Assembly: GCA_963734545.1 (NCBI GenBank)
Contig: CAVTHO010000007.1
Location: 1 to 64,000, forward strand
Origin: an uncultured Spirochaetota bacterium
GTDB lineage: Bacteria; Spirochaetota; Spirochaetia; SZUA-6; Fen-1364
Length of the DNA stretch: 64,000 nucleotides
Reading direction: 5' to 3'
The translations under genes and the position numbers were made by a program. Positions 23,827 to 38,633 of this stretch are shown here, in pieces. A model generated the notes under the pieces. The model saw only the letters and a program-made list of their open reading frames with translations. It was not told where the DNA came from and searched no databases. Within the stretch, counting starts at the first letter, position 1. Each line of letters opens with the position of its first letter.

Positions 23827-23855
23827 TTGACGCGTGGGCGTCCATCGGCCATAAT
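23827..23855 (+). promoter_or_regulatory. Sigma70 promoter of the beta-propeller operon
   Basis: TTGACG-17-CATAAT, then an AAGGAG RBS. Confidence 0.6.
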
Positions 23856-23893: not shown

Positions 23894-25114
23894 ATGCGCC
23901 GCTTCGTCCTCGTTCTGCTGGCCGTTGTCTCCTGCTGGTCACTGTTCGCGAGTGATTCAACGCCATCCGATATGTCGGGCCCGTCGTGGCCCACATGGCG
24001 GGGGCCAAACGGCAACGGCATTGTTGCGCTTTCGGCGTCTCCCGCGGCGGTTACCAAGGGCAATATTCTCTGGACCGCATCCGTGGGAGAGGGTTACAGC
24101 GCGACGTGCGTTGCCGGCAATTACGTGTTTACCGCGGGCAGAGTGGCCAGGAACGACACCGTCGTTTGCCTGGATGCGAAGACCGGCAACACGGTGTGGA
24201 GCACCGGTGTGGAGAGCACCTCCGGCGAGATGCCGGGCACGCGTTTCATGCCGGTATTCAGTGAGGGCAAGCTCTACTGCATCACCCGGGACGGCAAGGC
24301 GTTCTGCCTCAATGCCATCGACGGCGCTCTCTTGTGGAAGACCGACATTGCCAAAGAAGCAGGCGCGAGGATGCCGCGGTGGGGATTTGCCGCCTCAGCT
24401 GTCTTCTGGAGAGACCTCATCCTGTACAACGTCGGCGAGTGGGGAAGCGCGGTACGGAAGGATGACGGCAAGCTTGTGTGGAAAAGCCCTCCCACCGCGT
24501 CCGGATACTCGCCGCTCGTCCCTTTTACCTGGAAGGACAAGAGCTACGCGGCCGTGTTCGGCTCCGACAAGCTGTACGTCGCGGACCTGGAGACCGGTGC
24601 CAAAATCGCCTCTACGGAATGGTACACGGGCTATAACGTAAACGTTGCAGATCCGCTTGTCGTTGGAAACCGCATCTTTGTCACGTCGGACTACGGAAAA
24701 GGCGCTGGCTTGTTCGAGTTTGACGGCAAGGACCTGAAGCAGGTCTGGCAAAACGAGCTGCTCAAGAGCCACTTCTCCTCCGTGGTTTACCTGGACGGCT
24801 TCATCTATGGAAACGACGGGGACGCGAACGCCGCGACCGGAGACTTTGTGTGCCTGGATTTCGACACCGGCAAGGAGATGTGGCGCCATACCAGCAACGT
24901 GGGCAGTCTCATCGCGGTGAAGAACGGACTTCTCACTCTGAATCAATTCGCCCAGCTGACTCTTGTGAGTGCGGATCCCAGGAAGTACAGGGAGCTGGCG
25001 TCGAACAAGAAGATCTCCCGGGGTTTCTTCTGGCCTGCACCGACCCTGGCGGGAGGAAGGCTCTATCTGAGGTCCAACTCCGGCGATGTCGTGTGCGTGG
25101 AGATGCCGGAGTAA
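23894..25114 (+). CDS. PQQ-like beta-propeller repeat protein 1 (Sec signal)
   Basis: WPTWRGPNGNG and repeated CLDA.TG..VW blades. Confidence 0.88.
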   Translation: MRRFVLVLLAVVSCWSLFASDSTPSDMSGPSWPTWRGPNGNGIVALSASPAAVTKGNILWTASVGEGYSATCVAGNYVFTAGRVARNDTVVCLDAKTGNTVWSTGVESTSGEMPGTRFMPVFSEGKLYCITRDGKAFCLNAIDGALLWKTDIAKEAGARMPRWGFAASAVFWRDLILYNVGEWGSAVRKDDGKLVWKSPPTASGYSPLVPFTWKDKSYAAVFGSDKLYVADLETGAKIASTEWYTGYNVNVADPLVVGNRIFVTSDYGKGAGLFEFDGKDLKQVWQNELLKSHFSSVVYLDGFIYGNDGDANAATGDFVCLDFDTGKEMWRHTSNVGSLIAVKNGLLTLNQFAQLTLVSADPRKYRELASNKKISRGFFWPAPTLAGGRLYLRSNSGDVVCVEMPE

Positions 25115-25127
25115 GCTTCCGCATGAC

Positions 25128-26550
25128 GTGAAGACTCGCATCGCATTTTCCGCCGGGCTGGCTCTCTTCTGCGCGGTGGCCGTGACAGTGTTCGTTTCCT
25201 GGGACGCGCCCCGGCGCACGCTTGCCCTGCGGGAGCCCGGAGCGGACAAGCCCGGCTGACGGCGGGGGCGCACGGAGCGAACCGAGCTCAGGCCTATCCA
25301 TTGGAAGGGACTTCAGCTTCTTCCGAACCCTTGGCGCGACCGTTCCCGGATTCTGGCCGGGATTCCGCGGGCCCAACAAAGACAATATTGCGCCCTTGGA
25401 GAGCAGGCTTTCGGACCTGCAGGATTTTGGTCCTGGGCGCATCCTCTGGTCGGTCACCGCGCTGGGAGAGGGTCACGCGGGCGCGGCGGTCTCGGACGGC
25501 CGCGTGTATCTGCTCGACTACGATGAGACACACAAGGCAGAGGCGCTGCGCTGCCTGTCCCTGGATGACGGAAGCGAGCTATGGCGGCGGACCTATCCGG
25601 CGCGGATGAAGAGGAACCACGGCTATTCGCGCACGGTTCCCGCGATCTGGGACCGCTACGTGGTCACCATCGGCCCGCTGTGTGACGTGATGTGCGTTGA
25701 CCGCGTTACGGGAGATCTCATCTGGACGCTGGATGCGGCAAAAACCTACGGCTCCACGGTCCCCCTTTGGTACGCGGGGCAGTGTCCGTTCATAGAAGAC
25801 GGCACGCTGATCCTCAACGTGGGCGGAAGCATCCTTGTGGCCTGCATCGACGTGGCAACGGGACAAGCGCTCTGGACCGTGCCCAATCCGGACAAGGCAC
25901 TTCTGACTCATGCCTCGGTTGCGCGGATGCTGTACGGCGGCAAGACCATTTATCTCTGTGTCTTCTCCACGGGGCTGTTCGGCATCCGTCCGCCTGTTGC
26001 GGGAACACGCCAGGGGGCCATCGCTTTCACAGTCCCCGGCTGGAGACCGCAGGTCGAGGTGCCGACTCCGATCGCGCTGCCGGACAACCGCATTTACCTC
26101 ACGGCTGGTTTTGGAGCTGGCAACATCCTGGTGCAGATCTCTTCGGCAGGGGCAACAGTGATTGCGCAGCACCCGCCGGGGGAAGGACTCTCCTCAGAGC
26201 AACAGACGCCCATTCTCCGGGACGGACTCCTGTACGGGGTTGAAACCGCGGACTCGGGGGAGTTGCACGATCAGCTCGTGTGCGCGCGGCCCGGCGGTGC
26301 TATTGTATGGGCAAGCGGAAAGGCCGCGAGGTTCGGCCTGGGTCCGTATCTCCTTGCGGACGGGAAGCTCTTTCTCTTGAGTGAAACGGGTACCCTGACC
26401 GTGGTGGAGGCGACACCGGCCGGATATCGCGAGCTTTCCAGAAACCGCGTGCTTCAGGGGGTAGACGCCTGGGGCCCCATGGCGGTTGCCGGGACCCGGC
26501 TCTTGCTCAGGGATTCCCGGAGGCTTCTTTGCATCGATATCAAGGGGTAG
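25128..26550 (+). CDS. PQQ-like beta-propeller repeat protein 2 with N-terminal TM (frameshift near 25225)
   Basis: GTG 25128 gives MKTRIAFSAGLALFCAVAVTVF. Second frame has WPGFRGPNKDN, LGEGHAGAAV.DGRVYLLDYD and RNHGYSRTVPA. Confidence 0.82.
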
Positions 26551-26552
26551 GT

Positions 26553-27593
26553 GTGGGCAAGATGGGTCAGAAGCTTGGATGGGCGGTCGTGGGCGCCCTG
26601 GCAGGGGCTATGCTCTGCGTTGCCGCTGCGGTTATTTTTCTGGTCATGCCGACTGCGCGGGCAAAGGCGCAGCCGCCCGTTGCCAGGGCGCCGTCGCTTC
26701 CCGCGACACTGAGAAACTATGCGCGCACCGGAGGCTTTGCATTTGCTGATGGCACCGGGGCAATCGACATCGCAGTCGGGCCGAGGGGGCTCTATGTCAC
26801 CTGCGCAAAGGGCTATCAGGTGTGGACCTTCGACGGCCTCTCCGCGCCAGCGGGCGCCTCTCCTGCAATGACGCAGTCAGTCTCCACCTCGATCCAGCCC
26901 TGGGGCCTTGCGGTCGATTCGGATGGGACCGTGTACCTCGGCATGGACCGTCACATCGAGGTCAGGGACAGAGAAGGCGCCGTAATCCAGGAGTGGGCGG
27001 AGCTGGGAAGGGACGCGCGCATCCAGGCGCTCGCCGTGGACGCACGGTTCGTGTATGCAACCGACGGCCAGGAGAAAAGCGTTTATCAGTTCACAAAGCG
27101 AGGTCAGCTGGTTCGCCGTATCGGAGACAGGAACGCGGCCGCTGGCATTCCCGCCTTCGTGGTGCCGGGAATCCACTTCGATCTTCTCTCTACGAACGCT
27201 GCGGACGCCACACTCATCATTGTCTCAAACCCCGGCAGGCACAGCGTTGAGTATTTCAGACCTGACGGCACTCTTGCCTCTTTGTGGACGCGCACAAGCG
27301 ACGACTGGGACGGGTTCACCGGCTGCTGCAATCCCGGGTCAATCGCCTTCTTACGGGGGGGAACCGGAGGCGCTTTAACCGACCTCCTGTTCACTGCAGA
27401 AAAGGGAATACCCCGAGTGAAGGCGTACCGGCTGGACGGCAGGCTCGAATCCGTAGTTGAAGGTCCGGAGGACTTCCTTCCCGACGTGGACGGTGTGGAG
27501 ATCGCGGTCACGCCTGACGGACGTGTTCTTGTGCTGGACCCGGACCGGCAGGAGCTTCGGATCTTCAGCCGCCTGCAGGGGACGGGCGCATGA
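26553..27593 (+). CDS. Membrane-anchored NHL-like beta-propeller with a GCCNP motif
   Basis: N-terminal TM. PWGLAVDSDGTVYL and IAVTPDGRVLVLD blades; FTGCCNPG. Confidence 0.75.
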   Translation: MGKMGQKLGWAVVGALAGAMLCVAAAVIFLVMPTARAKAQPPVARAPSLPATLRNYARTGGFAFADGTGAIDIAVGPRGLYVTCAKGYQVWTFDGLSAPAGASPAMTQSVSTSIQPWGLAVDSDGTVYLGMDRHIEVRDREGAVIQEWAELGRDARIQALAVDARFVYATDGQEKSVYQFTKRGQLVRRIGDRNAAAGIPAFVVPGIHFDLLSTNAADATLIIVSNPGRHSVEYFRPDGTLASLWTRTSDDWDGFTGCCNPGSIAFLRGGTGGALTDLLFTAEKGIPRVKAYRLDGRLESVVEGPEDFLPDVDGVEIAVTPDGRVLVLDPDRQELRIFSRLQGTGA

Positions 27594-27799
27594 ACCGCCG
27601 CGAGTTCTTTGCCACACTGGGGCGCATCGCGGCTGCCGGCGCCCTGGCCGCGGTCGGAGTGAAGGTCGCGCGGAAGGCCGGAAACTCCGCGGCAAGCGCC
27701 GCGTGCCGCAACGAGGGTTGGTGCGCGCCCTGCCAGATTGCCGCAACCTGCGGCCTTCCGCGCGCCCTGTCCTTCCGCCAGAAAGGGGATACCTCATGA
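27590..27799 (+). CDS. Small Tat-signal four-Cys protein
   Basis: MNRREFF twin-arginine motif, C-x5-C-x2-C-x5-C, ATGA overlaps at both ends. Confidence 0.7.
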   Translation: MNRREFFATLGRIAAAGALAAVGVKVARKAGNSAASAACRNEGWCAPCQIAATCGLPRALSFRQKGDTS

Positions 27800-28374
27800 A
27801 CCGCCGCCGCTTCCTGGGTCTGATAGGGAGGGCGGGGGCTGTCGCGGCTGCGGCCTGGATTGGCTTTCGGGCCTTTGGCGCGGATCTCTTCAGACCGACG
27901 CCCTCCACGGTATGGCAGATCGATCCGGATCTGTGCATCGGTTGTGACCGATGTCGGACCGCCTGCGTTCTTCTGCCTTCCGCGGTGAAATGCGTCCAGG
28001 CCTATTCCCAGTGCGGATACTGCGATCTTTGCGGCGCGTACTTCCAGCCCAAGACAAAGGAGCGCACCACGGGGGCGGAGAACCAGATCTGTCCTACCGG
28101 TGCCATCAAGAGAACTTTTGTGGAGGATCCCTACTTCGAGTACAAGATTGTGGAGGACCTGTGCGTTGCGTGCGCGAAGTGCGTCGTAGGGTGTGCTGCA
28201 TTCGGAAATGCCTCCCTGTTCCTCCAGATCAAGCATGACCGATGCACCGGCTGCAACGAATGCGCGATTGCGCGCGTCTGCCCTGCGAAGGCCATAACCC
28301 GAGTGCCCAGAAGCCAGCCATACAAGCTCCGCCAACATTCCGTGGCTGCGGGTCGGGGAGTTGACCGTGCCTGA
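27796..28374 (+). CDS. Tat-exported polyferredoxin (up to four 4Fe-4S clusters; NapG/MauM-like architecture)
   Basis: MNRRRFL. CIGCDRCRTAC, CGYCDLC...CP, CVACAKCVVGC and CTGCNEC....VCP. Confidence 0.88.
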   Translation: MNRRRFLGLIGRAGAVAAAAWIGFRAFGADLFRPTPSTVWQIDPDLCIGCDRCRTACVLLPSAVKCVQAYSQCGYCDLCGAYFQPKTKERTTGAENQICPTGAIKRTFVEDPYFEYKIVEDLCVACAKCVVGCAAFGNASLFLQIKHDRCTGCNECAIARVCPAKAITRVPRSQPYKLRQHSVAAGRGVDRA

Positions 28375-29476
28375 CATAGTCCAGAACCGTTTCCCGAGAC
28401 CCGAGTTTGAGGGAAACTACACGATTCCCCAGGTTCAGGTCCCGGTTCCGCGCTCGGATTGGTGGCTCGCTGCGGACGTTCTGGTCCTGGCCGCGGCGCT
28501 CGGGCTTTCAATCCTTGCGATCTTCAAGTGGAAAAGCCGCAGGGCGCAGGTCCTGATCGGAGCGGGAAGCGTGGCGTATTTCGGCTTCTTCCGCAGGGGC
28601 TGCATCTGCCCCGTGGGAAGCGTCCAGAATGTCGCGCAGGCCCTTGCGGATCCTTTGTTCGTCCTGCCGGTCCTCGCGCTTCTTTTCTTCCTCCTGCCCT
28701 TGGCCGCAGCGCTGTGGAAGGGGAGGGCCTTCTGCGGCTCTGTCTGTCCCTTTGGAGCGCTCCAGGAGCTGGTCCACGTGCGCACAATCCGGGTTCCTCC
28801 TGTCGTGGACGCGGCGCTCAGACCCCTGCCCGCCGTGTATCTGGCAACCGCGGTTCTTGCCGCCACTACGGGGATCGGATACCTGATATGCCGGATAGAT
28901 CCCTTTGTCGGTGTGTTCCGGCTGAGCGCGCCGCTGGTGCCGGCCCTGCTCGGCGTCCTGGTGTTCGGTGCAGGGCTCGTGGTCTATCGACCCTATTGTC
29001 GTTATGTCTGCCCCTATGGATGGCTCCTGGGCTGCGCTTCGCTTCTGGCGGCGCAGCCGCCGCGCATTGGAGAGGCGAAGTGCACTCAGTGCGGCGCCTG
29101 CGCGCGTGTATGTCTGGCGGATGCAATACAGGTACCGGGGAAAAGGCTGGCGGCGGAGCGGCGGCCGCCATGGCGCACAGCGGCAAGCGCGGCGGGCTTC
29201 CTGGCAGCCGGCGCGGCAGCCGGTCTTTCGGTCGGGCCTTTTTTTGCCGGCCTCTCCGCGGGCGCGCAGTTGCGGGCACCGGTAGTCCGCCTGGCTGCCC
29301 TGATGTGGGGCTTGTTCCTGGGCCTTGTGTTCTTCGGCTATCATCATGCCTCCGTCATGCGGTCTGCCCGCGGGGAATCGAACCGATATCAGATCATGCC
29401 GAACAGGTGCGTGCATTGCGGGAGATGCATGACGGCGTGCCCGTTCCCTCGTGCGGCGCGCAAGGGGGAAATGTGA
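28361..29476 (+). CDS. Integral-membrane 4Fe-4S protein (NapH/MauN/YccM-like)
   Basis: Several TM helices. GCICP, FCGSVCP and YCRYVCP, plus CTQCGACARVC and CVHCGRCMTACP. Confidence 0.88.
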   Translation: MTVPDIVQNRFPRPEFEGNYTIPQVQVPVPRSDWWLAADVLVLAAALGLSILAIFKWKSRRAQVLIGAGSVAYFGFFRRGCICPVGSVQNVAQALADPLFVLPVLALLFFLLPLAAALWKGRAFCGSVCPFGALQELVHVRTIRVPPVVDAALRPLPAVYLATAVLAATTGIGYLICRIDPFVGVFRLSAPLVPALLGVLVFGAGLVVYRPYCRYVCPYGWLLGCASLLAAQPPRIGEAKCTQCGACARVCLADAIQVPGKRLAAERRPPWRTAASAAGFLAAGAAAGLSVGPFFAGLSAGAQLRAPVVRLAALMWGLFLGLVFFGYHHASVMRSARGESNRYQIMPNRCVHCGRCMTACPFPRAARKGEM

Positions 29477-31158
29477 GGAAGAGCCCCGTGCTTCAATCCG
29501 TGCTGAAGGCGCTTGCCCTCGTTTCCGGCGTGTTTGGCATCGTGGTGGCGGCTTTTGTTCTTGTCACAAGCCTCAGGCTTTCCTCGGTCGATCCCCTTAC
29601 CTCGCAGGCAATCTCCTCCTTGAAGCAGCGCGTCGGAGAGCAGGGAGCGGACGAATCGCTGTATGCGGACATCAGGAACCTGGACCTGCTGGCTCGCCAG
29701 GCCTACTTCACGAGCCAGGACCGGCTTACCGCCGGCGTGGTGCTCTTCCTGTGTGCCTGGGCAATCAGCGTGGGCTCACTCCAGACACTGAAGATGCTTT
29801 CCGGAGCAAAACCTCCCGCGATCCCTCGCGTGACCGCCAACCAGGAGGCGCACACGGAGCGCAGGATCAGAACCGCGGTGGTTGCCGTGGGCGGGTTGCT
29901 TGCCGCTGCCTGCGTGGCAAGCCTGGCGCTGGTCCCCAAGGCCGCGTTTGAGCCGGGCGGAACGGCCGCTGCAGCCCCGGGAGTCTCGCCGCCGGCAGTC
30001 CGGCCGCCGGTGGACCCTGAGTCGGAGTGGCCGGCATTCCGCGGACCGCGCGCCGGGATCGCCACAGAGAACGCGGACCCCGCATGGGACTCGGGAAAAC
30101 TGGTGGTGCTCTGGAAGACCCCCGTGCCGCTCAAGGGCTTCGGCTCTCCGGTGGTGTGGGAAGACACGATCTATCTGAGCGCGGCAGATGAAGCGCACCA
30201 GGTTGTCATGGCCTTTGATGCGGCCACCGGCAAAATGAGGTGGCGCACGGAGGTCTCCGGCGGCGGGGGAGCACCGGAGATATCGCCCAACTCGAGCTTT
30301 GCCACACCCACGATGGCGTGCAACGCGAAAGGAGCTTATGCGCTTTTTGCCACGGGCCGCGTGGTGTGCCTGGATCCGGGCGGCGCCATCCTCTGGAAAC
30401 GTGATCTGGGCCGGCCGGACAATCCCTACGGCCTTGCCTCTTCCCTTTGTGCGAGCGATTCCATGCTCTTTGTGCAATTCGATCAGACCGAGAATCCTGC
30501 CCTGGTTGCACTGGATGCGGCAACCGGCCGCAACGCGTGGACCGCGGCACGGCAGGGAAACGCCTCCTGGTCTTCACCGATCTTCATCAGGACGTCCAAG
30601 GGGCCTCTTCTTGTCGTTGCCGGGAATCCCGACGTCGAGGGCTTTGACCCCGGCACAGGCAAGAGCCTTTGGCGCGTGAAGCTCCTGGCCGGGGACGTTG
30701 TGACGAGTCCGGCGTTCTATGGTGATACCGTGTACATCGCAAGCCAGTACGCGGCAGCAGCCGCAATCCCGCTTTCCCTTCCCCAGACCCTCTGGGAATC
30801 GCAAGACTACCTCCCTGACATCTCGAGCCCGCTGGCAACAGCGAAAGGTTTGTACCTCTGCATGACGCGCGGAAAGCTGACCTGCCTGGATCCGAAAACC
30901 GGGGAGCCGCGCTGGACGTCCGACATAAAGAGCGAAGTCAACGCATCGCTTATCCTCCTGGGAGATCTTGTGATCGTCGTCGCGAAGAGCGGAACCCTGC
31001 ACGCGTTTTCGGAGCGGCCGGCAGGCACCCCGGTGAAGCCCGCATGGAGCTTCAAAATCGACGGGACAGTCGTGGCCACGCCCGCCTATAGACAGGGCCG
31101 CATGTACGTGCGGTCCGACACGGCGCTCCTGTGCCTGGCGCCAGAGGCAATCAAATGA
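29473..31158 (+). CDS. PQQ-like beta-propeller protein 3 with an N-terminal multi-TM region
   Basis: Three hydrophobic segments, IRNLDLLARQAYF, WPAFRGP and GFGSPVVWED.IYL. GTGA overlap. Confidence 0.85.
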   Translation: MRKSPVLQSVLKALALVSGVFGIVVAAFVLVTSLRLSSVDPLTSQAISSLKQRVGEQGADESLYADIRNLDLLARQAYFTSQDRLTAGVVLFLCAWAISVGSLQTLKMLSGAKPPAIPRVTANQEAHTERRIRTAVVAVGGLLAAACVASLALVPKAAFEPGGTAAAAPGVSPPAVRPPVDPESEWPAFRGPRAGIATENADPAWDSGKLVVLWKTPVPLKGFGSPVVWEDTIYLSAADEAHQVVMAFDAATGKMRWRTEVSGGGGAPEISPNSSFATPTMACNAKGAYALFATGRVVCLDPGGAILWKRDLGRPDNPYGLASSLCASDSMLFVQFDQTENPALVALDAATGRNAWTAARQGNASWSSPIFIRTSKGPLLVVAGNPDVEGFDPGTGKSLWRVKLLAGDVVTSPAFYGDTVYIASQYAAAAAIPLSLPQTLWESQDYLPDISSPLATAKGLYLCMTRGKLTCLDPKTGEPRWTSDIKSEVNASLILLGDLVIVVAKSGTLHAFSERPAGTPVKPAWSFKIDGTVVATPAYRQGRMYVRSDTALLCLAPEAIK

Positions 31159-32264
31159 GATGGGTCTGCGCGTGCGTTCTGGCCGTGTCCGTCTCTGGGG
31201 TTCCGTGCGCCGCGCAGGACTGGCCCTGCGGCCGAGGGGATGCTTTGTTGAGCGGGTACAGACCAGGCGCGCTGGCATTGCCTCTTACGCTCGCGTGGAG
31301 CTTTGACACGGGAGACGACATCGGAGGCGCGCCCGCCTGCGTGGGGGGAAGGCTCTACGTAGGCTGCATTAACGGGAGCGTGTGGTGCTTGAACGCGCAG
31401 ACCGGTGCAAGGCTGTGGAGCAGGAGCGTGGGCACTGCCGTGGAGGCAGCACCTCTTGTCGCCATCGGAAGGCTTTTCTTCGGGGATTCCCGCGGTGACT
31501 TTCACTGCCTGCGCGCCGACACGGGTCAAGAGGTGTGGCGATTCGAGGCCGAAGCCAAGATCGCCGGCGGCGCAACCCTGGCGGCGGTCAAGGGAAGGGC
31601 TGCCGTGGTATTCGGAAGCTATGACCGGAACCTCTACTGCCTTGACGCGGAGACCGGCAAGAAGCTCTGGAGCTTCCTTGCGGGTAACTACATCAACGGC
31701 TCTCCGGCGGTAGACTCCGGCAGGGTCGTGTTTGGCGGCTGTGACGGCAAGGTGCGCGTTCTCTCCCTGGATACCGGGAGCCTGCTCTTCGAGATCGATG
31801 CGGGCTCCTATGTGCCGGGGTCTCCCGCAATTCGCGGAAAAACCGCATACGCGGTCACGTACGCGGGTGAAGTGCTTGCTTTTGACACCCAATCCGGCAG
31901 ACGCCTGTGGGCGCACAAGTATCCCGCGGAAAACGGCGTTGTGAGCGCTCCCGCGGTCGGGCCCGATGCGGTTGTCGTTGGAAACCGGGACGGGAAGATC
32001 CTCTGCCTGGACTCCCGCACCGGCAGACAGCGATGGATGTTCGCAACAGGCGGCCGCGTAGATTCATCAGCAGTTATCGCTGGCAAGACGGTGCTGTGCG
32101 CTTCCACGGACGGGTGGCTGTACCTCCTTGATCTCACACGCGGCAAGGAGCTCTGGAGCTATGAGGTGGGCGGCGAGCTTGTCGCATCGCCCATCGTGGC
32201 AGGCATGGTGTTTCTGGGCACGCCGGACGGGGTGGTATGTGCGTGGAGGACGCCGGCGCGGTGA
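31155..32264 (+). CDS. PQQ-like (BamB-like) beta-propeller protein 4
   Basis: Signal peptide, DWPCGRGD and regular GSYD.NLYCLDA.TG..LW repeats. Confidence 0.88.
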   Translation: MRWVCACVLAVSVSGVPCAAQDWPCGRGDALLSGYRPGALALPLTLAWSFDTGDDIGGAPACVGGRLYVGCINGSVWCLNAQTGARLWSRSVGTAVEAAPLVAIGRLFFGDSRGDFHCLRADTGQEVWRFEAEAKIAGGATLAAVKGRAAVVFGSYDRNLYCLDAETGKKLWSFLAGNYINGSPAVDSGRVVFGGCDGKVRVLSLDTGSLLFEIDAGSYVPGSPAIRGKTAYAVTYAGEVLAFDTQSGRRLWAHKYPAENGVVSAPAVGPDAVVVGNRDGKILCLDSRTGRQRWMFATGGRVDSSAVIAGKTVLCASTDGWLYLLDLTRGKELWSYEVGGELVASPIVAGMVFLGTPDGVVCAWRTPAR

Positions 32265-33541
32265 GGATTGCCTACCTTGTTCCGGGAAACGGGGCCGCCT
32301 TCTACTGCGAAAACTGCGTGCGGGACGCGGCCCAGATCCGTGCGCTGAGTGCCGCCGGGCACGAGGTGCTGGCCGTGCCGCTGTACCTGCCGCTCGACTT
32401 CCCAAGCACTCGCGTCGCAAGCCCGGTGTTTTTCGGCGCCGTGTCCTTCTTCCTCCAGGAGACGATGCCGGCTCTGGGGCGCCTTCCGAAGTGGCTCCGC
32501 CGTCTCACGGACTCTCGGGCGGCTCTTCGCCTGGCAGCCGGTCTTGCGGGCTCCACCTCGGCGCGCGGCCGGGAGGCACTGACGTTGTCCATGCTCTCCG
32601 GCGACGACGCCGTCTTCCGCAGGGAGAACGGTCGAGTGGCGGATTGGCTTTCTGCAAACTTCAGACCTGAAGTGATCCACCTTTCGAATCTCCTGTTGAT
32701 CGGAATGGCCCAGGATCTGAAAAAGAGGTTCTGCCGGCCGGTCTTTGTCACGCTCCAGGATGAGCATACGTGGCTGGACTCGCTCTCGGAGCCGGCCCGT
32801 GCGGCTGCCTGGGAAACGGTGAGGAATCGCGCCGGGGCCGTGGATGCTTTTCTCCCCGTCAGCAACTACTACCGACGCTTCATGATGCAGCGCCTCGGTG
32901 TTTCCGCGGATCTTCTGCGCACCGTACGGCCAGGGGTTGAAATGCGTCATCCGGTTCCGAGACCGCTTCCTCCGCGCCGCGCCATCGGTTTTCTCTCCCG
33001 CTGGTCGAAACCCATGGGGCTCGGGCTCCTGGCGGAGGCCTTCTGCCTGCTCAAAGAGGATCAACGCTACAAGGATGTTCAGCTTCTGCTGTGCGGCGGA
33101 GGCACGGGAGAAGATCGCCGCTTCCTCAGGGCGTTGCGCGCCCGGTTCCGGCGTGCGGGTGTCACCAGGGATGTGGCCTTCATGCCCGGCTTTTCCGGTA
33201 AGGATCGTCACCGGTTCTTCAATCGCATCTGGGCTCTCTCCGTGCCCTCCTTCGGGGGTGAGGCCTTTGGAACCTTTGTCGTGGAAGCGCTGGCCGCGGG
33301 CGTTCCCGTGGTGCAGCCCGATGCGGGCGGCTATGCCGAGCTGGTTGACGGTGCGGGAATCCTGGTTCCTCCGGGAGATGCTGCCAGCCTGGCCGGAGCG
33401 CTCTGCCGTCTGCTGGATTCCCCTGGGTTGACGACGGAGTTGGGCCAGAGAGGGCACGACACGGCGCGGAGCTCATTCTCATTCTCCTGCTACGCCCAGT
33501 CGCTGACTGATGCCTACCGCCAGCTTGGAAGCTCCTCATGA
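32261..33541 (+). CDS. Glycosyltransferase family 4 with an N-terminal CxxC
   Basis: PGNGAAFYCENCVRD; EAFGTFVVEALAAGVPVV Ex7E motif. Confidence 0.9.
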   Translation: MRIAYLVPGNGAAFYCENCVRDAAQIRALSAAGHEVLAVPLYLPLDFPSTRVASPVFFGAVSFFLQETMPALGRLPKWLRRLTDSRAALRLAAGLAGSTSARGREALTLSMLSGDDAVFRRENGRVADWLSANFRPEVIHLSNLLLIGMAQDLKKRFCRPVFVTLQDEHTWLDSLSEPARAAAWETVRNRAGAVDAFLPVSNYYRRFMMQRLGVSADLLRTVRPGVEMRHPVPRPLPPRRAIGFLSRWSKPMGLGLLAEAFCLLKEDQRYKDVQLLLCGGGTGEDRRFLRALRARFRRAGVTRDVAFMPGFSGKDRHRFFNRIWALSVPSFGGEAFGTFVVEALAAGVPVVQPDAGGYAELVDGAGILVPPGDAASLAGALCRLLDSPGLTTELGQRGHDTARSSFSFSCYAQSLTDAYRQLGSSS

Positions 33542-34224
33542 CATTAGAAGCCCAGGGCGCCTCCAGGGATTTCGGTACGGCGGGCGGTCCCGTGCGCCGC
33601 GTGCTGGACAGCGTGGATCTTCTGATACATGCAGGAGAGAGAATCGTAATCCAGGGACCAAGCGGAGCCGGCAAGAGCACGCTCCTGAACCTGCTCGGAG
33701 GGATCTCCGCTCCCAGCGCCGGCAGGATCCTTGTGGATGGATGCGACCTTGGAGGCTTCTCCGAGCGCGAGGCTTCCGCCTTCCGCAATCTCCGCGTGGG
33801 ATTTGTGTTCCAGCTTCACCATCTTCTGCCGCAGTTCACGCTCCTGGAAAACGTGCTGCTCCCGGTGCTGGGAAAGGGAGAGGCGTGGCGTGAAGCCGTG
33901 GAGCGCGCGCGTTCCTGGTTCCAGATCGCGGGGCTTTCACACCGCAAAGACGCTTACCCGTTTGAGGTCTCCGTGGGGGAAAGCCAGCGGGCTGCCATCC
34001 TTCGCGCGCTCGTGAACCAGCCCGCAGTGCTTTTTGCGGATGAGCCCACGGGGAGTCTGGACAGGGATACTTCCGACAGGATTGTGGACTTCATCCTGGA
34101 GTGGCAGGAGCGTGTTGCGGCCGCGCTGGTCACGGTGACACACGACAGCGCTGTGGCGGAGCGCAGCGCATCAGGCGGCAGGCTTCTTCGCCTGGTGGAC
34201 GGCAGGCTGCATGCGGCTTCTTAG
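33538..34224 (+). CDS. LolD/MacB-type ABC ATP-binding protein
   Basis: GPSGAGKST, GFVFQLHHLL and ADEPTGSLD. Confidence 0.93.
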   Translation: MTLEAQGASRDFGTAGGPVRRVLDSVDLLIHAGERIVIQGPSGAGKSTLLNLLGGISAPSAGRILVDGCDLGGFSEREASAFRNLRVGFVFQLHHLLPQFTLLENVLLPVLGKGEAWREAVERARSWFQIAGLSHRKDAYPFEVSVGESQRAAILRALVNQPAVLFADEPTGSLDRDTSDRIVDFILEWQERVAAALVTVTHDSAVAERSASGGRLLRLVDGRLHAAS

Positions 34225-37200
34225 TGCGGCGCTGAAAAGCACGCGGCTCTACTACAAGACTGCCGCCGCCCTTGCCGGCTCCGCCGCGCTCTGCGGCCTT
34301 GTTCTCTCCGGCGCGCTCGCAACGGGGGACGCCGTTCGCCAGAGCCTCACCGCACGAGCCCGGATGCGTCTGGGGCCCGTGGAAAGCATCGTCTATCAGC
34401 CGGAGCGAAGCTTCGGCTCGGACCTCGGGGATCGACTTCGCGCGGCAGGGTTTGCCCGTGCTGCCGGTACCGCGGTGTATCTCCGTGCGGTTCTTGCACA
34501 CGGAGACAAGCGCGCGCCGGCCGCCCATGTGCTCGGTGTTTCTCCCGGGCCTGCATCCCCGGCTGCGGGAGAGGTTTGGCTCAATCCATGGACAGCCGGT
34601 CTGCTGGGCGCAGCACTGGGTGACACGATCCTGATCCAGACACAGAAGCCCAGTCTCCTTCCCGCGGAAGCGCCCATGGGTATGCAGCCGACCATCGTGG
34701 CGCTGCGCGTGAAGGTGGCGCGCATCACGGATAAGTACCCGTTGTGTTTTGACCCCAATGCGAACCAGGAGCTGCCCTTCCTTGCCGTTGTTGACCGTGA
34801 CTCGTTGGCCGATCGCGTCGGGTGGGAGGGCAGGGCCAACCTCCTGCTCATCGAGACCGGCACCCAGGGGAGCACGAGCGGGGTCACGCGGCAAACTTCC
34901 GTGCGCCAGGCTCTGGATCAGGCGTGGAATCTTTCCGATGCCGGCTATGAGGTTGAGTCCGCGCCGCACGGCCTGGCAATCCTGGACACGCAGCGTGTCT
35001 TCATTGAGCCCTCGGTTGCACGCGCTGCATCCGGACCCGATGTCTCAGGTTACTTCGGCTATTTTGTGGACACGGTGAGAAAACGGGACGCTGCGATTCA
35101 GGCCCCCTACGTGTTTGTTGCCGCCGGGGAGAAAGATCCCGTGCCGGTTCCACCGGCCGGAGGGGCTGTTATCACAGAATGGCTGGCCAGGGATATTCGT
35201 GCGAGTGCCGGGGATACCATTGAGCTCCGGTTTCGCATTCCGAATGATGTGGGACAACTGGAGCAAAGACATGCCGAGCTCACCGTGGCCGGAGTAATCC
35301 CCGTTCCGGCAAGCCCTCTTATCCGCGCCCTCACGCCGCGTTTTCCCGGGCTGTCGGACATGGTGTCATGTCGCGACTGGAGACCGGGCATGCCCCTTGA
35401 TCTCTCCCGCATCACACCTCGCGACGAGGCATACTGGAGGCTCTACCAGGCAACCCCGCGCCTGTTTCTCAATTTCAGCGATGCGGACCGAATCTTTGCC
35501 AATCCGTTTGGAAACAGGACCGCCCTTTGCTTTGCGGGCTCAGAGCGACAGCCGCGGCTCACGCCAGAGGTCTCGGGGTTTGTCCTTGACGAGGTGAGAC
35601 GCACCGGTCTCATCTCCGCGGCAGAAGGCACGGATTTTTCAGGTCTTTTTGTCGGTCTCAGCTCCCTTGTGGTCCTGGCCGGGCTCCTGTTGGGATCCCT
35701 TACCCTTGGCCTGTCATTGCGTCGCAGGGCCGGAGAAAGGGAGACGTTGCGGGCCCTGGGCTGGCCGCCCGGCAGGATCAGGGCCGCAGTGGTTGTGGAG
35801 GTCCTGGCGGTTGTGCTACCGGCATCCATTCCAGGCGCGGCGCTCGGGCTTTTCTATGACAGGCTGGCCATTTACTGGCTCAACAAGATCTGGGCATCCG
35901 CGTCCGCGGGTCCTCTGCTTCAGGCGCGTTTCTCACTGGCTTCCGCGGCAGAGGCTGTTGCAGCGACCCTGGCCTTGTTTGTCGTCATTGCGATCTGGCA
36001 TGCGCACGCATCCGGACGCCGGACGCAGCGCAGGGCCCGCACGTCCAGCGGCGTACCGGCAGCTCTTGCCGTTGCGGCCGCCCTGGCCGCGGTAGCGTGT
36101 GCAGCCGCGCCGACAAACGTCGACCAATCGATTCGCTGGTTCGGGGTCGGGCTTCTTGCGCTTGCCTGCTGCATCTGCGGGTTCTGGTGGTTCCTGTCGA
36201 AGGCCGGGCGCCTGGACTACAGACGCCCCAGGCCCCTTCTTCGATGGATGCATCGGAGAAGAGGCCGCTGCGTGGGAGAGGCGGCGCTTCTCTCTGTGGG
36301 AGTTTTTCTGGTGCTGGGCATCGGCGGGTATGTTCCGCGTGTGCCGGATGCCGCAGATCCTCATTCGGGAACCGGGGGATTTTCCTGGCTCCTGCAGACT
36401 TCGCTTCCCGTGACTGCGCAGGAGGTCTCTTCCTTGCCTGATGCCGTGGGCATCAGGGTCAGGGAGGGGGCGGATGCAAGCTGCCTCAACCTGAACAGGT
36501 CCAAGGTGCCACCGGTCTGGGGCGTGGACCCCGGGGCTTTTTTCGGCCGTTTCGGCATGGACTGGTCGATCCTGGACAGACCGCTTGAGGACGGCTCAAT
36601 CCCCGCGGTTTCCGATACGTCTGTCATCACGTGGGGCCTGGCCAGGCGTGTGGGGGACTCGCTGGACTACGTCGATGAAAGCGGAAGGGCCGTGCGCGTG
36701 ACGCTGGTGGCCGGCATGCCGGATTCCATATTTCAAGGCGCGCTCCTGGTTTCAGAGAAAAGCTTCAAGCGCCTGTATCCCTCCGAGCCCGGCTACCGCA
36801 GGCTGCTCGTCACACGGACGGACATGTCCGACATGGAGAGGGCTCTCCGGAGCCGTGGCCTTGCGGCCGAGACGACGTCGCAGAGGTTGTCCCGGTTCAT
36901 GTCGGTGGAAGCCACGTATCTTTCAATCTTCGTTGTGCTGGGCGGGCTGGGCGTGGCGCTGGGCAGCATTGGATTTGCGCTTCTCTGTTTTCGGACGCTC
37001 ACCGAAGAGGCCCGAAGCATCGCCATCCTTTCTGCGCTGGGCTGGCCGCGAAGAAGGCTTCTTGCGGCAAGCTGGGGAGAACACGTCATGGCGTGGCTGT
37101 GGGGAGCCGCAGCAGGAACCCTGGCCGCGGCAACGGCCCTGGTGCCGCAGGCAGCTCGAGTCAACTGGCGGCCGTGGGCCGCAATGGCACTCCTGATCTG

Positions 37201-37279
37201 GGCCTGCGGAGCGGCGGCGTTGTTCCTGGCCGCGGCGTTGAAGCCTCAACCGGACGCGGATCTCCTTCGCCCTGAGTAG
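34211..37279 (+). CDS. Large double FtsX-like ABC permease
   Basis: 1022 aa with two FtsX modules (RRRAGERETLRALGW and EEARSIAILSALGW) and large extracytoplasmic loops. Confidence 0.85.
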   Translation: MRLLSAALKSTRLYYKTAAALAGSAALCGLVLSGALATGDAVRQSLTARARMRLGPVESIVYQPERSFGSDLGDRLRAAGFARAAGTAVYLRAVLAHGDKRAPAAHVLGVSPGPASPAAGEVWLNPWTAGLLGAALGDTILIQTQKPSLLPAEAPMGMQPTIVALRVKVARITDKYPLCFDPNANQELPFLAVVDRDSLADRVGWEGRANLLLIETGTQGSTSGVTRQTSVRQALDQAWNLSDAGYEVESAPHGLAILDTQRVFIEPSVARAASGPDVSGYFGYFVDTVRKRDAAIQAPYVFVAAGEKDPVPVPPAGGAVITEWLARDIRASAGDTIELRFRIPNDVGQLEQRHAELTVAGVIPVPASPLIRALTPRFPGLSDMVSCRDWRPGMPLDLSRITPRDEAYWRLYQATPRLFLNFSDADRIFANPFGNRTALCFAGSERQPRLTPEVSGFVLDEVRRTGLISAAEGTDFSGLFVGLSSLVVLAGLLLGSLTLGLSLRRRAGERETLRALGWPPGRIRAAVVVEVLAVVLPASIPGAALGLFYDRLAIYWLNKIWASASAGPLLQARFSLASAAEAVAATLALFVVIAIWHAHASGRRTQRRARTSSGVPAALAVAAALAAVACAAAPTNVDQSIRWFGVGLLALACCICGFWWFLSKAGRLDYRRPRPLLRWMHRRRGRCVGEAALLSVGVFLVLGIGGYVPRVPDAADPHSGTGGFSWLLQTSLPVTAQEVSSLPDAVGIRVREGADASCLNLNRSKVPPVWGVDPGAFFGRFGMDWSILDRPLEDGSIPAVSDTSVITWGLARRVGDSLDYVDESGRAVRVTLVAGMPDSIFQGALLVSEKSFKRLYPSEPGYRRLLVTRTDMSDMERALRSRGLAAETTSQRLSRFMSVEATYLSIFVVLGGLGVALGSIGFALLCFRTLTEEARSIAILSALGWPRRRLLAASWGEHVMAWLWGAAAGTLAAATALVPQAARVNWRPWAAMALLIWACGAAALFLAAALKPQPDADLLRPE

Positions 37280-37370
37280 CCGCCGACAGTACGATGGCGC
37301 TGCAGTGCCAGCTCAGCGGCTTGCGCGGGCATGGAGTCTGGGATATGGTCAGCAGCAAGGAACGATTTTC

Positions 37371-37577
37371 ATGTTTGGCATTGGACTGCCTGAGCTGCTC
37401 ATCATTGGCGTTCTGATCCTTCTTTTCATGAACCCGAAAGACATGCCATCGATGTTCAGAAAGATCGGAAGGGCCGTGAACGAAATGAAAAAGATGCGCG
37501 AGAGCTTCCTCGAGAGCTTGCGGGATCTTGACGCCAGGGAAAAAGGGTCCAAGAATAGATCACGCTCAAGGACCTGA
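37371..37577 (+). CDS. tatB: TatB/TatA family translocase subunit
   Basis: MFGIGLPELLII...NPKDMP..FRKIGR. Confidence 0.75.
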   Translation: MFGIGLPELLIIGVLILLFMNPKDMPSMFRKIGRAVNEMKKMRESFLESLRDLDAREKGSKNRSRSRT

Positions 37578-37598
37578 CCGATAGAGTGAGGTGAAAGT

Positions 37599-37787
37599 AT
37601 GATAGGCACCGTGGAGATACTGATCATCTGTGCGGTCGTGCTGGTCCTGTTTGGCGCAGCCGCTATTCCCAAGTTCGCGCGGTCCCTCGGGAGAGCACGG
37701 AAAGAGTTCGAAGAGGGGCTGAAAGAGGGAACAAAAGACACATCCACTCCCGGGAAGAAGGACCGTGAGGAAAAAAGAAAGGCCTAG
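37599..37787 (+). CDS. tatA: TatA/E family translocase subunit
   Basis: EILII..VVLVLFG...IPKFARSLGRARKEFEEG. Confidence 0.88.
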   Translation: MIGTVEILIICAVVLVLFGAAAIPKFARSLGRARKEFEEGLKEGTKDTSTPGKKDREEKRKA

Positions 37788-38515
37788 GTCTGTCCAGGTT
37801 TCCTCTGAGCAATCGCGGCCAGGAGTATGCTGAAGAAGAAGAGCGCCACCATCGGAAGCGCCACCAGCATCATGTTGAAAGCGTCCACCGTAGGGGTGAT
37901 CACTGCCGCGACCCCCGTGATTGCGACGATCGCTATGCGCCAGCCCTTGAGAAGCATTCCCGCGGTCACAATTCGAAGCTTGGCAAGCATGAAGACCACG
38001 AGGGGAAGCTCGAAGAACAACCCAACCCAGAATAGCAGCGAAGTCACGAACGGATAGAAACGTTCGGACGTCCATTGTGTCTTGAAAACATCCGGAAGGA
38101 AACCTGAGAGGAACCGGACGGCAACGGGAACCAGCACAAACCAGGCGAATGCGGTCCCTGTGAGGAAGAGGGCAATCGCAGAAGGAATCACTGCATAGGC
38201 GTAGCGCCGCTCCTGGGGATGAAGACCGGGAGAGATGAATCTCCACAGCTCGACCAGGACAACCGGCATGGCCAGTATGGCTCCGACGGTGAAAGCAATT
38301 CGCATGTAGACCGAAAAACCCTCCGTGGGACCGATTACAATCAGCTGGTTGCCGTACGGACTGAAAAGGTACTTCAATATCGAAGGGGCAAAAAACAGGC
38401 TCGCGCTTCCGCAGAGAACGAACGCGACGACAATGCGAATCAGATGCTTCCGAAACTCAGCGAGATGATCAAAGAAGGTCATCCCGCCCTCCGAGCCGTC
38501 AGGATCCTTCTTCAT
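37784..38515 (-). CDS. tatC: Tat translocase subunit TatC
   Basis: MTFFDHLAEFRKHL, WRFISPGLHPQER, FELP and AAVITPT.D. Confidence 0.93.
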   Translation of the reverse strand: MKKDPDGSEGGMTFFDHLAEFRKHLIRIVVAFVLCGSASLFFAPSILKYLFSPYGNQLIVIGPTEGFSVYMRIAFTVGAILAMPVVLVELWRFISPGLHPQERRYAYAVIPSAIALFLTGTAFAWFVLVPVAVRFLSGFLPDVFKTQWTSERFYPFVTSLLFWVGLFFELPLVVFMLAKLRIVTAGMLLKGWRIAIVAITGVAAVITPTVDAFNMMLVALPMVALFFFSILLAAIAQRKPGQT

Positions 38516-38594
38516 GGTGCCGAGCCTATTGGCGAGATGCGGAGGTGTCAAGTTGCTGTGGCGCACGCCGCCCTGCCGACAATGGCATGCGACA

Positions 38595-38623
38595 TTGACA
38601 GGTGGAGGCGCAGCCCCTATACT
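38595..38623 (+). promoter_or_regulatory. Sigma70 promoter of the protease gene, back-to-back with a tatC promoter
   Basis: TTGACA-17-TATACT on the plus strand. TTGACA(38546-38551)-17-TAGGCT on the minus strand. Confidence 0.7.
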
Positions 38624-38633
38624 TCGACTCATT

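Follow-up and report, generated by a model that had tools for sequence, protein, structure and literature searches.

A conserved eleven-gene propeller and polyferredoxin locus, possibly an envelope redox system, in an uncultured Spirochaetota bacterium

NapG and NapH are a haem-free, quinol-oxidising pair that feeds periplasmic reductases, and in the clade II nos clusters NosZ is encoded with NosG/NosH and with the NosDFY-NosL assembly ATP-binding cassette (ABC) system. The main text of a survey describes NapH-like proteins as modular transmembrane conduits that lead to reductases or from oxidases, places such modules beside ExaA-type alcohol oxidases in 172 genomes and holds the conduit to be usable in both directions (Meheust et al. 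2021, PMC8238504). Here we analysed the first 64,000 nucleotides of contig CAVTHO010000007.1, from an uncultured Spirochaetota bacterium; this whole stretch is called the window. It carries 11 genes, g1 to g11, which encode several beta-propellers, a polyferredoxin and its membrane partner, a Cys-rich miniprotein, a glycosyltransferase and an ABC transporter. Many phyla share this gene set in the same order. We propose, with a probability of about 0.5, that the 11 genes are one functional unit, the short-form member of a widespread, undescribed envelope redox system that would pass electrons outward to an anchored propeller complex.

The genes lie on the + strand from 23894 to 37279, nearly without intergenic space. 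Six of the ten junctions are start/stop overlaps, of the ATGA type at g3/g4, g4/g5, g7/g8 and g9/g10 and of the GTGA type at g6/g7 and g8/g9; g5/g6 and g10/g11 overlap by 14 nt, and gaps of 13 nt and 11 nt separate g1 from g2 and g2 from g3. A first-pass annotation made from the letters had reported this co-oriented run, its predominant overlaps and four pyrroloquinoline quinone (PQQ)-like propellers, and each of these was recovered, the last as PF13360 matches in g1, g2, g7 and g8. The sigma-70 promoter that it placed before g1 is present as a candidate (TTGACG-17-CATAAT, 23827..23855, + strand, 39 nt 5' of the g1 ATG, 10 of 12 consensus matches). Note that this is a consensus pattern match only, one of 6 such sites in the region where 2.4 are expected. 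The G+C content across the cluster, 0.616 to 0.643, is ordinary for the window. Families were assigned with Pfam and NCBIfam models at their curated cut-offs; among the NCBIfam models listed, none of the 11 proteins attains one. As had been stated before, the cluster holds neither molybdo- nor flavoenzyme: these families, and the pqq families, had no match in the Pfam/NCBIfam search, and the haem motif CxxCH is absent from all 14 proteins scanned.

We then asked how far the arrangement extends. A g3 query gave strong matches in 9 of 40 genomes of the same order (E 1e-27 to 9e-41), and in just 1 of 20 genomes of the same genus. In the six same-order loci fetched, g3, g5 and g6 are always adjacent, g2 lies upstream in five, and g7 follows in five, the sixth contig ending inside g6. 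A scan with the g2 alignment found 592 relatives at one genome per species and 123 more from metagenomes. For the synteny count, 80 + 80 loci baited by g2 alone were kept, and those with at least 3 kb downstream were counted. Here g3 and g5 directly follow g2 in 67 of 71 genome loci and 31 of 43 metagenome loci, 98 of 114 altogether, so the check first suggested for the cluster, synteny in other genomes, came out in its favour. Most exceptions, 12 from metagenomes and 2 from genomes, have a lone g2-like gene; in addition, L026 gave no g3 match and L092 has a permuted order.

The cultured carriers are Bacteroidota: Mariniphaga anaerophila DSM 26910, Sunxiuqinia elliptica, Gaoshiqia sediminis and Maribellus. 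Among metagenome-assembled genomes (MAGs), whose taxon labels are given as deposited, the genes occur in Planctomycetota (Phycisphaerae), KSB1, Aminicenantes, Victivallales, Verrucomicrobiota, Spirochaetota, Nitrospirota (Nitrospiraceae) and Chloroflexi, and they are also found on gut metagenome contigs. The first-pass annotation had placed similar unannotated sets in Planctomycetota and Bacteroidota; they are indeed there, and in many phyla more. Sediment, wetland and gut anaerobes from at least ten phyla are represented. A g3 profile matched 1,892 clusters (50% identity) at E≤1e-30 among 1.84 billion representatives, the best 150 being nearly all full-length, at about 320-350 aa, and at least 4,798 of 8,000 scored candidates are g2 relatives. 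In an even sample of Spirochaetota the same profile matched only 6 of 201 genomes, the window's own included, and the system is therefore patchy and accessory in this phylum. Its core consists of g2, g3, g5, g6 and g7, which are found together even where the locus ends after g7. When 635 unassigned open reading frames (ORFs) from 120 loci were clustered in search of a missed catalytic subunit, no family was found in more than 16 loci.

The part of the core whose kind can be recognised is the pair g5/g6. The g6 product (28361..29476) is a NapH/NosH/MauN-like membrane iron-sulfur protein, and its domain (PF12801 Fer4_5, 43 bits against a cut-off of 22), Cys motifs and six hydrophobic segments place it in the NapH-like superfamily. 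All 16 sequences compared keep C125xxxC129P, C213xxxC217P and a pair of CxxCxxCxxxCP motifs without exception. Upstream, g5 (27796..28374) encodes a polyferredoxin (MNRRRFLGL...) predicted to be exported by the twin-arginine translocation (Tat) pathway, with 17 Cys in four CxxCxxC(xxxC)-type groups; its orthologues keep 52-65% identity across phyla and 16-17 Cys in four groups. Both stay far from the curated Nap models. The g6 protein scores 47.5 bits against 213.05 for NapH/MauN (TIGR02163) and 26.8 against 234 for NapH (NF007013); for NapG (NF007012) no match is listed for g5, g6 reaches a weak 22.3 against 269, and the cluster holds no napA-like gene. A sequence search of solved structures returned only generic Fe-S subunits for g5 (E 2e-5) and only ferredoxin-motif matches for g6 (E 1.5e-3).

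In most related loci this pair is accompanied by a cytoplasmic module that the window lacks. When only loci are counted in which g6 is complete and followed by at least 4.5 kb, 68 of 74 have NuoE-NuoF and NfnA/GltD-like genes between g7 and g8; the window has neither. In the same-order loci G019 and G025, for example, the order is g7, NuoEF, GltD-like, g8, g10, g11. The NuoEF fusion of relatives (795-833 aa) combines 2Fe-2S_thioredx, Complex1_51K, NADH_4Fe-4S and a 2x[4Fe-4S] domain, and the NfnA/GltD-like protein (about 520-540 aa) combines Fer2_4, Fer4_20 and an FAD/NAD(P) Rossmann domain. The best solved relatives of the latter are the N-terminal ~300 residues of 9bov_A, 8oh5_C and NfnA 9n5u_A (E 2e-84 to 9e-67), a region that corresponds to the NAD(P)H-handling part of Nfn-Bfu/Stn-type flavoenzymes. 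Subunits of such flavoenzymes are absent from the window's operon. The quinone pool to which the first-pass annotation had coupled the complex is thus not the only apparent source: most lineages look NAD(P)H-fed, the window being a minority short form without the module. The window's own genome has several NuoEF-type loci elsewhere, and at one of them (G000:C8:395922-400168) a GltD-like gene follows a NuoE/NuoF-like gene; this pair is 56% and 40% identical to the operon versions of G025 and may be an ordinary Nfn/Bfu enzyme.

The window's g6 is short as well. Its [4Fe-4S] motifs are 109 aa apart, compared with 147-151 aa in 74 of 74 related loci, and about 40 aa of a conserved loop between the last two transmembrane (TM) segments are missing. 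A coupling of this deletion to the loss of NuoEF was considered and rejected: the other six NuoEF-less loci keep the full 149-aa spacing, and since they retain the loop the two losses are not simply linked. The genes downstream in these six loci are unrelated (TonB receptor, phosphorylase, GFO/ThuA, glycosyltransferase family 2 and TPR proteins). Further genes were seen around the conduit. In M. anaerophila (L183:1778-2860) and 8 other Prolixibacteraceae loci, a gene for a GxDLY/SGNH (GDSL-like) esterase stands between the NuoEF and NfnA-like genes; in a KSB1 MAG (L033:15117-17249) a TonB-dependent receptor gene stands between g6 and g7; and a single locus that lacks both g7 and NuoEF downstream has a thioredoxin-like (Thioredoxin_7/DsbH-like) protein after g6 (L074:14655-15149).

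Between the conduit and the propellers lies the smallest gene of the operon. Its neighbour g3 (26562..27593) encodes a six-bladed NHL propeller anchored by one N-terminal hydrophobic helix, in which the motifs GF.GCCNP and T.EK..R.K are invariant. AlphaFold2 models of g2 and g3 were built on our own alignments; that of g3 has a predicted local distance difference test score (pLDDT) of 87.8, and its nearest folds are TRIM/Thin NHL domains (Foldseek E 4e-13). A shared propeller fold is no proof of function. The gene that follows, g4 (27590..27799), encodes a membrane-anchored miniprotein of 69 aa with a Tat motif (MNRREFF...), a C-x5-C-x2-C-x5-C pattern and no family match. Across an alignment of 31 sequences R3 and the four Cys never vary, R4 and F6 show at least 90% conservation, and no Trp or Tyr from which a quinone cofactor could form is conserved. 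The Tat motifs of g4 (MNRREFFATLGRIAAAG) and g5 (MNRRRFLGLIGRAGAV) are of the S/T-R-R-x-F-L-K type and are followed by a hydrophobic stretch, which makes both predicted substrates.

In 64 of 108 loci a strict pattern finds a g4-like ORF flanked by g3 and g5, and in 5 of 13 inspected misses g4 is present with R-K instead of R-R. Three natural rearrangements tie g4 to both of its neighbours. In L127 the g5 protein begins with the Tat signal and Cys knot of g4 as an in-frame fusion. In six loci without a separate g4 (L173, L159, L161, L165, L170 and L176), g3 itself bears a Tat-like S/D-R-R/K-x-F-L start and a C-terminal CxxCxxxCP tail, and in L117 and L179 that tail is found on a g3 with a plain anchor. 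The comparisons indicate that g4 is a genuine conserved component. A complex prediction of g3 (45-343) and g4 (28-69) with a 4Fe-4S cluster gave a score of 0.00 and a mark of 0.32, which weighs neither way, the fold of the partner being uncertain.

The remaining core proteins are propellers of the PQQ_2 type. The body of g2 (25222..26550; PF13360 PQQ_2, E 2.9e-18) belongs to the best-conserved protein of the set without a known cofactor motif: in an alignment of 28 sequences the mean column identity is 62%, and KRNHG.SR, GEG, DY and 4 Cys are invariant. Its AlphaFold2 model (pLDDT 87.1) is an eight-bladed propeller. The nearest solved folds are YxaL (Z 32.9), BamB (31.5), Rv3035 (31.1) and tetrathionate hydrolase (28.7), with a root-mean-square deviation of 3.1-3.3 A over 320-349 residues and 15-17% identity for the first three; the quinoprotein alcohol dehydrogenases PedH and XoxF-type MDH are more distant, with Z about 26. 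The g7 protein (29473..31158; PF13360, E 6.1e-34) adds a conserved N-terminal domain of three hydrophobic segments and carries the motif PDNHYGHSSS, which resembles KRNHG.SR of g2. Two propellers are secreted. The first, g1 (23894..25114; 406 aa, BamB-type and eight-bladed, PF13360 E 9e-26), has an N-terminal hydrophobic segment ending in VVSC, lipobox-like by our reading, and 1-4 paralogous propellers occupy its upstream position in related loci. The second, g8 (31155..32264), has a signal peptide and matches PQQ_2 (E 3.2e-48) and Beta-prop_ACSF4 (E 9.5e-57).

Public databases name the relatives of g2 only 'BamB' or 'PQQ-binding-like beta-propeller repeat protein'. None of the four propellers is BamB according to the equivalog models TIGR03300 and NF008351: against the TIGR03300 cut-off of 285.2, the most BamB-like, g8, scores 184.8, followed by g7 (85.1), g1 (48.4) and g2 (18.9). 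The labels are a systematic mis-annotation, which these scores correct. The models of PQQ-dependent dehydrogenases (TIGR03075, TIGR03074) are not reached either, the best score being 84.2 bits for g8 against 480.

The operon ends with genes for a glycosyltransferase of family 4 (GT4) and an ABC transporter. The cytoplasmic GT4 is g9 (32261..33541), which starts at GTG 32261, in the GTGA overlap, or at ATG 32237. It scores above the cut-offs of PF13692 (77.9 bits), PF00534 (65.3) and PF13439 (33.3) and attains no specific NCBIfam equivalog, the best reaching 69.8 against 409. Near its N-terminus it has FYCENC, part of a PG.GG.FYC.NC.RD motif invariant in 3 of 3 GT4s (window, M. anaerophila and L092). 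The ATPase g10 (33538..34224; PF00005 ABC_tran, E 4.5e-30) is of the LolD/MacB/DevA group, and g11 (34211..37279) is a duplicated FtsX permease of 1022 aa with PF02687 in two stretches, ~9-10 TM segments and extracytoplasmic stretches of about 440 and 200 aa (MacB type). An ATPase with an FtsX permease that has a large extracytoplasmic domain makes this a MacB-type (FtsX, type VII) transporter, and MacB_PCD is found in the Mariniphaga orthologue of g11. It is not LolCDE: g10 scores 211.4 against 307.75 for LolD, g11 has no NCBIfam match and its Mariniphaga orthologue scores 49.8 against 362. The solved-structure sequence search gave no relative for g11. The series GT4, ABC and double FtsX also follows g8 in M. 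anaerophila and in the Spirochaetota MAG L092; these genes are recurrent and not universal.

From these parts a route for the electrons can be suggested. The g6 and g5 proteins would form a haem-free, NapGH-like conduit. In the window it would take electrons from menaquinol, the short form leaving the quinol pool or an unlinked donor as source, and in most other lineages the cytoplasmic NuoE-NuoF and NfnA/GltD-like NAD(P)H module would feed the cytoplasmic clusters of g6. The conduit would hand the electrons to the outer face of the inner membrane, where g4, which probably holds a further Fe-S or metal site, may relay them to the anchored NHL propeller g3; g4 is placed between g5 and g3 because of its fusions. 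The presence of four Cys in g4 and its routing by Tat suggest that a cofactor is inserted before export, in the cytoplasm. In g3, the invariant vicinal Cys-Cys is the best candidate for a redox-active site and the most plausible end point of the chain. Ferredoxin:thioredoxin reductase and HdrB, the latter with its Cys-Cys-Gly sites, provide precedents for chemistry between Fe-S clusters and disulfides. A likely role of g2 is to bind the substrate or to serve as a second catalytic subunit, and g1, g7 and g8 may scaffold the complex. The likeliest task of g9 with g10/g11 would be the synthesis and extraction of a glycosylated lipid or envelope component, either required by the complex or acted on by it. 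Overall, the system would most likely be a periplasmic reductase, as an electron sink or in thiol/sulfur-type reduction in anaerobic heterotrophs.

A bolder version of this scheme, which we consider unlikely in its full form, would be a new class of periplasmic reductase whose catalytic centre is the NHL Cys-Cys pair, served by a Tat-delivered four-Cys Fe-S miniprotein in the manner of ferredoxin:thioredoxin reductase or HdrB, though on the far side of the inner membrane. In most lineages it would be fed by a flavin-based, possibly bifurcating, NfnABC-like NAD(P)H module through a haem- and flavin-free NapH-like conduit. Anaerobic heterotrophs from many phyla would then export low-potential electrons to a multi-propeller complex that reduces a disulfide, a polysulfide or a lipid-linked substrate beyond the known respiratory enzymes.

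Several observations weigh against an outward-directed redox unit. Electron flow, its direction and the cofactors are all inferred from domains and synteny. The g3 protein resembles generic NHL domains only, and the closest folds of g2 are mainly cofactor-less scaffolds, tetrathionate hydrolase being the sole enzyme among them. No g4 was seen in L092, L134 or L076, and a plain-anchored g3 that enters by the Sec pathway, as in the window, cannot itself hold a cluster inserted in the cytoplasm. A Tat-signal GFO/IDH/MocA oxidoreductase adjoins the operon in 8 of 120 loci, which also fits inward electron flow. The accessory genes may be only loosely coupled to the core, since G019 and G025 have the ABC genes without the GT4 and six loci end after g7. 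Finally, the frameshift in g2 described below, the absent NAD(P)H module and the unique 40-aa deletion in g6 allow for a copy that does not work.

This last point leads to the likeliest of the rivals, though a doubtful one: a divergent form of the system, horizontally acquired, that is now an inactive, decaying remnant in this genome. The g2 gene, the most conserved core gene outside the ferredoxins, has lost its frame between anchor and propeller. A membrane-anchor fragment of 42 codons (25128..25256, + strand) runs from GTG 25128 to TGA 25254-25256, out of frame with the propeller, which goes on in another frame. One extra G at about 25255 accounts for the break, and deleting one G opens a frame of 473 aa. 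Orthologues of g2 are 472-488 aa long and start with this anchor, and where the window reads T-G-A-C the 84% identical metagenome protein P0002 has a Tyr codon. Read-through of the TGA was rejected as an explanation; the continued frame has no likeness to the orthologues. The propeller body that the first-pass annotation described is present, but the break in the gene had been missed.

The other signs of decay are the missing NuoEF and NfnA-like genes, the loss of a g6 loop that all 74 relatives keep, the rarity of strong g3 matches in the genus and the position of the window in a tree. In a quick maximum-likelihood tree of 90 g2 sequences, from which hits of <350 residues or with stops were excluded and for which the careful search is unfinished, the window and four metagenome proteins (P0002-P0005) form a group on a long stem (0.91; Shimodaira-Hasegawa-like approximate likelihood-ratio test, SH-aLRT, 100); the copies of its own genus (G019) and family (G022) fall elsewhere. 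The operon of the window appears to be a divergent short form, and from the tree placement and the departures from its relatives it was probably acquired separately from their copy. Against decay, the other ten genes are intact, with all checked invariant motifs and tight translational coupling kept; P0002 and P0003 (84% and 71% identity) retain a full-length g2; and 6 of 74 related loci likewise do without the NAD(P)H module. The single-base insertion could also be an assembly error, the site being uncovered by public contigs: none bridges 25258-25452, and one ends at 25257. Public sequencing runs with matching words, from wetland and freshwater-sediment metagenomes, contain at most 0.24 of these words, and no RNA run among the public runs searched matches the region. 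The window's copy may be decaying.

A lipid or glycolipid biogenesis and export machine is an unlikely alternative. Here the GT4 would glycosylate a (terpenoid) lipid, the MacB-type ABC transporter would extract it, the BamB-like propellers would be periplasmic assembly scaffolds and the Fe-S chain would carry out or support just one modification step in the periplasm. DevBCA exports heterocyst glycolipids that are made with a glycosyltransferase, and the recurrence of GT4, LolD/DevA-like ATPase and duplicated FtsX with the propellers in three phyla fits such a machine, as do the scaffold-like nearest folds of g2. The main support comes from a module with a DADDT toroid directly 5' of g2 in 13-16 of 120 loci. 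However, the invariant core g2, g3, g5, g6 and g7 is present without GT4 or ABC in several loci, and a four-cluster ferredoxin, a NapH-like protein and an Nfn-type module are a heavy outlay for a side reaction. Moreover, the own genome (89% complete) gave no SHC-like gene with the P0122 query, a search that had no positive control.

The module just mentioned, of five genes, lies on the same strand as g2 and replaces the g1-like propellers, for example at L173:3882-9989; further loci with it are L079, L084, L100, L161, L165, L166, L170, L172, L174-L177 and L182, several of them gut metagenome contigs. Its products are a Fer4 protein, a NirJ/Ahb-like radical SAM/SPASM enzyme that scores far below cut-offs, a fusion of polyprenyl synthetase with DUF116 and two cytoplasmic alpha/alpha-toroid proteins, one of 290 aa and prenyltransferase-type, the other of 572 aa and SHC-like, with DADDT and no signal peptide. 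Genes for a LytS-type kinase and a LytTR regulator often stand ahead of it.

Rather improbable is a periplasmic oxidising system, in which the propellers or partner dehydrogenases would oxidise a sugar, alcohol or sulfur compound and the electrons would run inward through g5/g6 to menaquinone or, by way of the NuoEF/NfnA-like module, to NAD(P)+. PQQ-type eight-bladed propellers do include dehydrogenases, such as the PedH and XoxF-type MDH found among the more distant folds of g2, the GFO/IDH/MocA neighbours would suit such a system, and NapH-like modules near ExaA-type oxidases are on record in the main text cited above (172 genomes; PMC8238504). Yet no propeller attains a quinoprotein cut-off (TIGR03075, best 84 against 480 bits). 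The absence of pqq genes claimed by the first-pass annotation holds for the cluster, and in the genome (89% complete) pqqE stays below its cut-off, at best 60.5 against 381. No pqqC match was seen either, the control of that search being weak, as the pqqC model matched in no genome. The periplasmic part has neither haem nor flavin, and reducing NAD(P)+ from most periplasmic donors would be uphill. As for the GFO/IDH/MocA genes, two of them, at L063:5550-7013 and L127:7240-8613, carry the Tat signals SNRRDFLRKAAAG and SRRAFLKASAAG, that of L127 being followed by ThuA; such neighbours may hint at a periplasmic sugar-oxidoreductase partner. The last alternative, a chance neighbourhood of unrelated envelope genes, is practically excluded by the synteny, the order being repeated in the 98 of 114 independently baited loci from many phyla and the start and stop codons overlapping.

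Next to the operon lie Tat genes, which we regard as neighbours and not as a conserved part of the system. A tatB-like gene (37371-37577) and tatA (37599-37787) are on the + strand (37371..37787), and tatC (37784..38653), the sole TatC found in the genome, is on the - strand and convergent with tatA. The three genes that had been described as following the cluster are present, then, though tatC faces the other way; the end first drawn for the cluster, 38515, falls within it. A role for them in the system was rejected: none of 160 related loci has tatA, tatB or tatC at E≤1e-8, in a scan that short TatA/TatB could escape and TatC would not. Two promoter-like sites lie in 37528-37603, just 5' of tatA, and because of them tatB and tatA may be transcribed on their own. 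On the strand opposite to tatC, and overlapping its start, is a gene for a trypsin-like protein (38514-39575; HtrA/DegP-type protease domain, no PDZ match), in a stretch (38001-40000) where G+C falls to 0.527 from about 0.62 around. Further on, at 40848-42930, the gene for a RecA-like fragment protein (PF00154, E 9e-6, slightly under the cut-off) precedes that for an impB/mucB/samB (IMS) family member, a pair that we take to resemble an imuA-imuB type mutagenesis cassette.

The first-pass annotation could match the gene combination to no named pathway, and this view stands after Pfam/NCBIfam, solved-structure and literature searches. Full-text searches, whose scope excluded subscription journals and the supplementary tables of PMC8238504, found no description of the set, and in the main text of that paper, the tables aside, 'propeller' and 'PQQ' occur 0 times. 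If our proposal of an outward-directed redox system is right, it would add a new terminal module to the few haem-free electron routes across the inner membrane, and it may for the first time connect an Nfn/Bfu-type NAD(P)H flavoenzyme with the periplasm. It would also matter for the disposal of reducing equivalents by fermentative Bacteroidota, Planctomycetota and Spirochaetota. The cultivable Bacteroidota that carry the genes are tractable hosts in which to study their function.

Of the described systems, NapG/NapH (NosG/NosH, MauM/MauN) is the closest to the electron-carrying part: both place a Tat ferredoxin with four [4Fe-4S]-type motifs beside a PF12801 membrane protein, and both are haem-free. 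They differ in several ways. The scores lie far under the curated models (47.5 against 213 and 22 against 269 bits), the second cluster motif of g6 comes after two extra TM segments, giving six hydrophobic segments in all, there is no NapA/B/C, NosZ or MauA/B partner, and most loci have a cytoplasmic NAD(P)H flavoprotein module. The clade II nos cluster likewise encodes a periplasmic propeller, a NapGH-type supply and an ABC transporter together. In our locus, by contrast, the ABC transporter is of the FtsX/MacB and not the ABC-2 type, and the propellers are of the eight-bladed PQQ_2 and six-bladed NHL types, without a cupredoxin domain; no NosZ, NosD, NosL or NosF/NosY match was found at E≤0.01, and the only Nos match is that of g6 to NosR, at 25.7 against 1000 bits. 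The mau and qhp clusters share a small Cys-rich exported subunit, a propeller subunit and MauM/N-like or ABC (QhpF) accessories with the operon, which differs in having no match to MauA/MauB or QhpA/C/D and no dihaem protein; the window also lacks a radical SAM gene.

The propellers and the transporter have relatives of their own. BamB, YxaL and Rv3035 share the cofactor-less, eight-bladed PQQ_2 fold of g2, and PF13360 is found in g1, g2, g7 and g8; unlike them, g2 and g7 have TM helices that tether them to the inner membrane, and they belong to a redox operon with 4-8 paralogues. MacB, LolCDE and DevBCA provide the pattern of a LolD/DevA-like ATPase with an FtsX permease that has a MacB-like periplasmic domain, whereas here the permease is a single duplicated chain of 1022-1087 aa, no membrane-fusion/TolC partner is encoded, and the ADOP and LolC/E matches are weak (58 and 50 bits against 622 and 362).

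Two further groups bear comparison. The systems in the main text of PMC8238504 join a NapH-like conduit to diverse periplasmic oxidoreductases, mostly of unknown reaction; these are defined there by ApbE/FMN-binding (flavinylation) genes, of which the operon has none. NfnABC and Stn (PDB 9n5u and 8oh5; PMC11829005, PMC12018979) resemble the NuoE+NuoF fusion and NfnA-like subunit of the related loci, not of the window. There the A subunit, at about 520-540 aa, matches only the N-terminal ~300 residues of chains of 963-1178 aa, and the third partner would be a membrane polyferredoxin in place of a soluble ferredoxin. Judged by their domains, the electron-input parts are of known kinds, NapGH-like and Nfn-Bfu-like. 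The periplasmic part, with its NHL-CC propeller, four-Cys Tat miniprotein, at least four BamB-like propellers and GT4 plus duplicated FtsX ABC, is without a characterised counterpart. We take the system to be a variant of the NapH-type extracytoplasmic electron-transfer systems, and its terminal chemistry may turn out to be categorically new.

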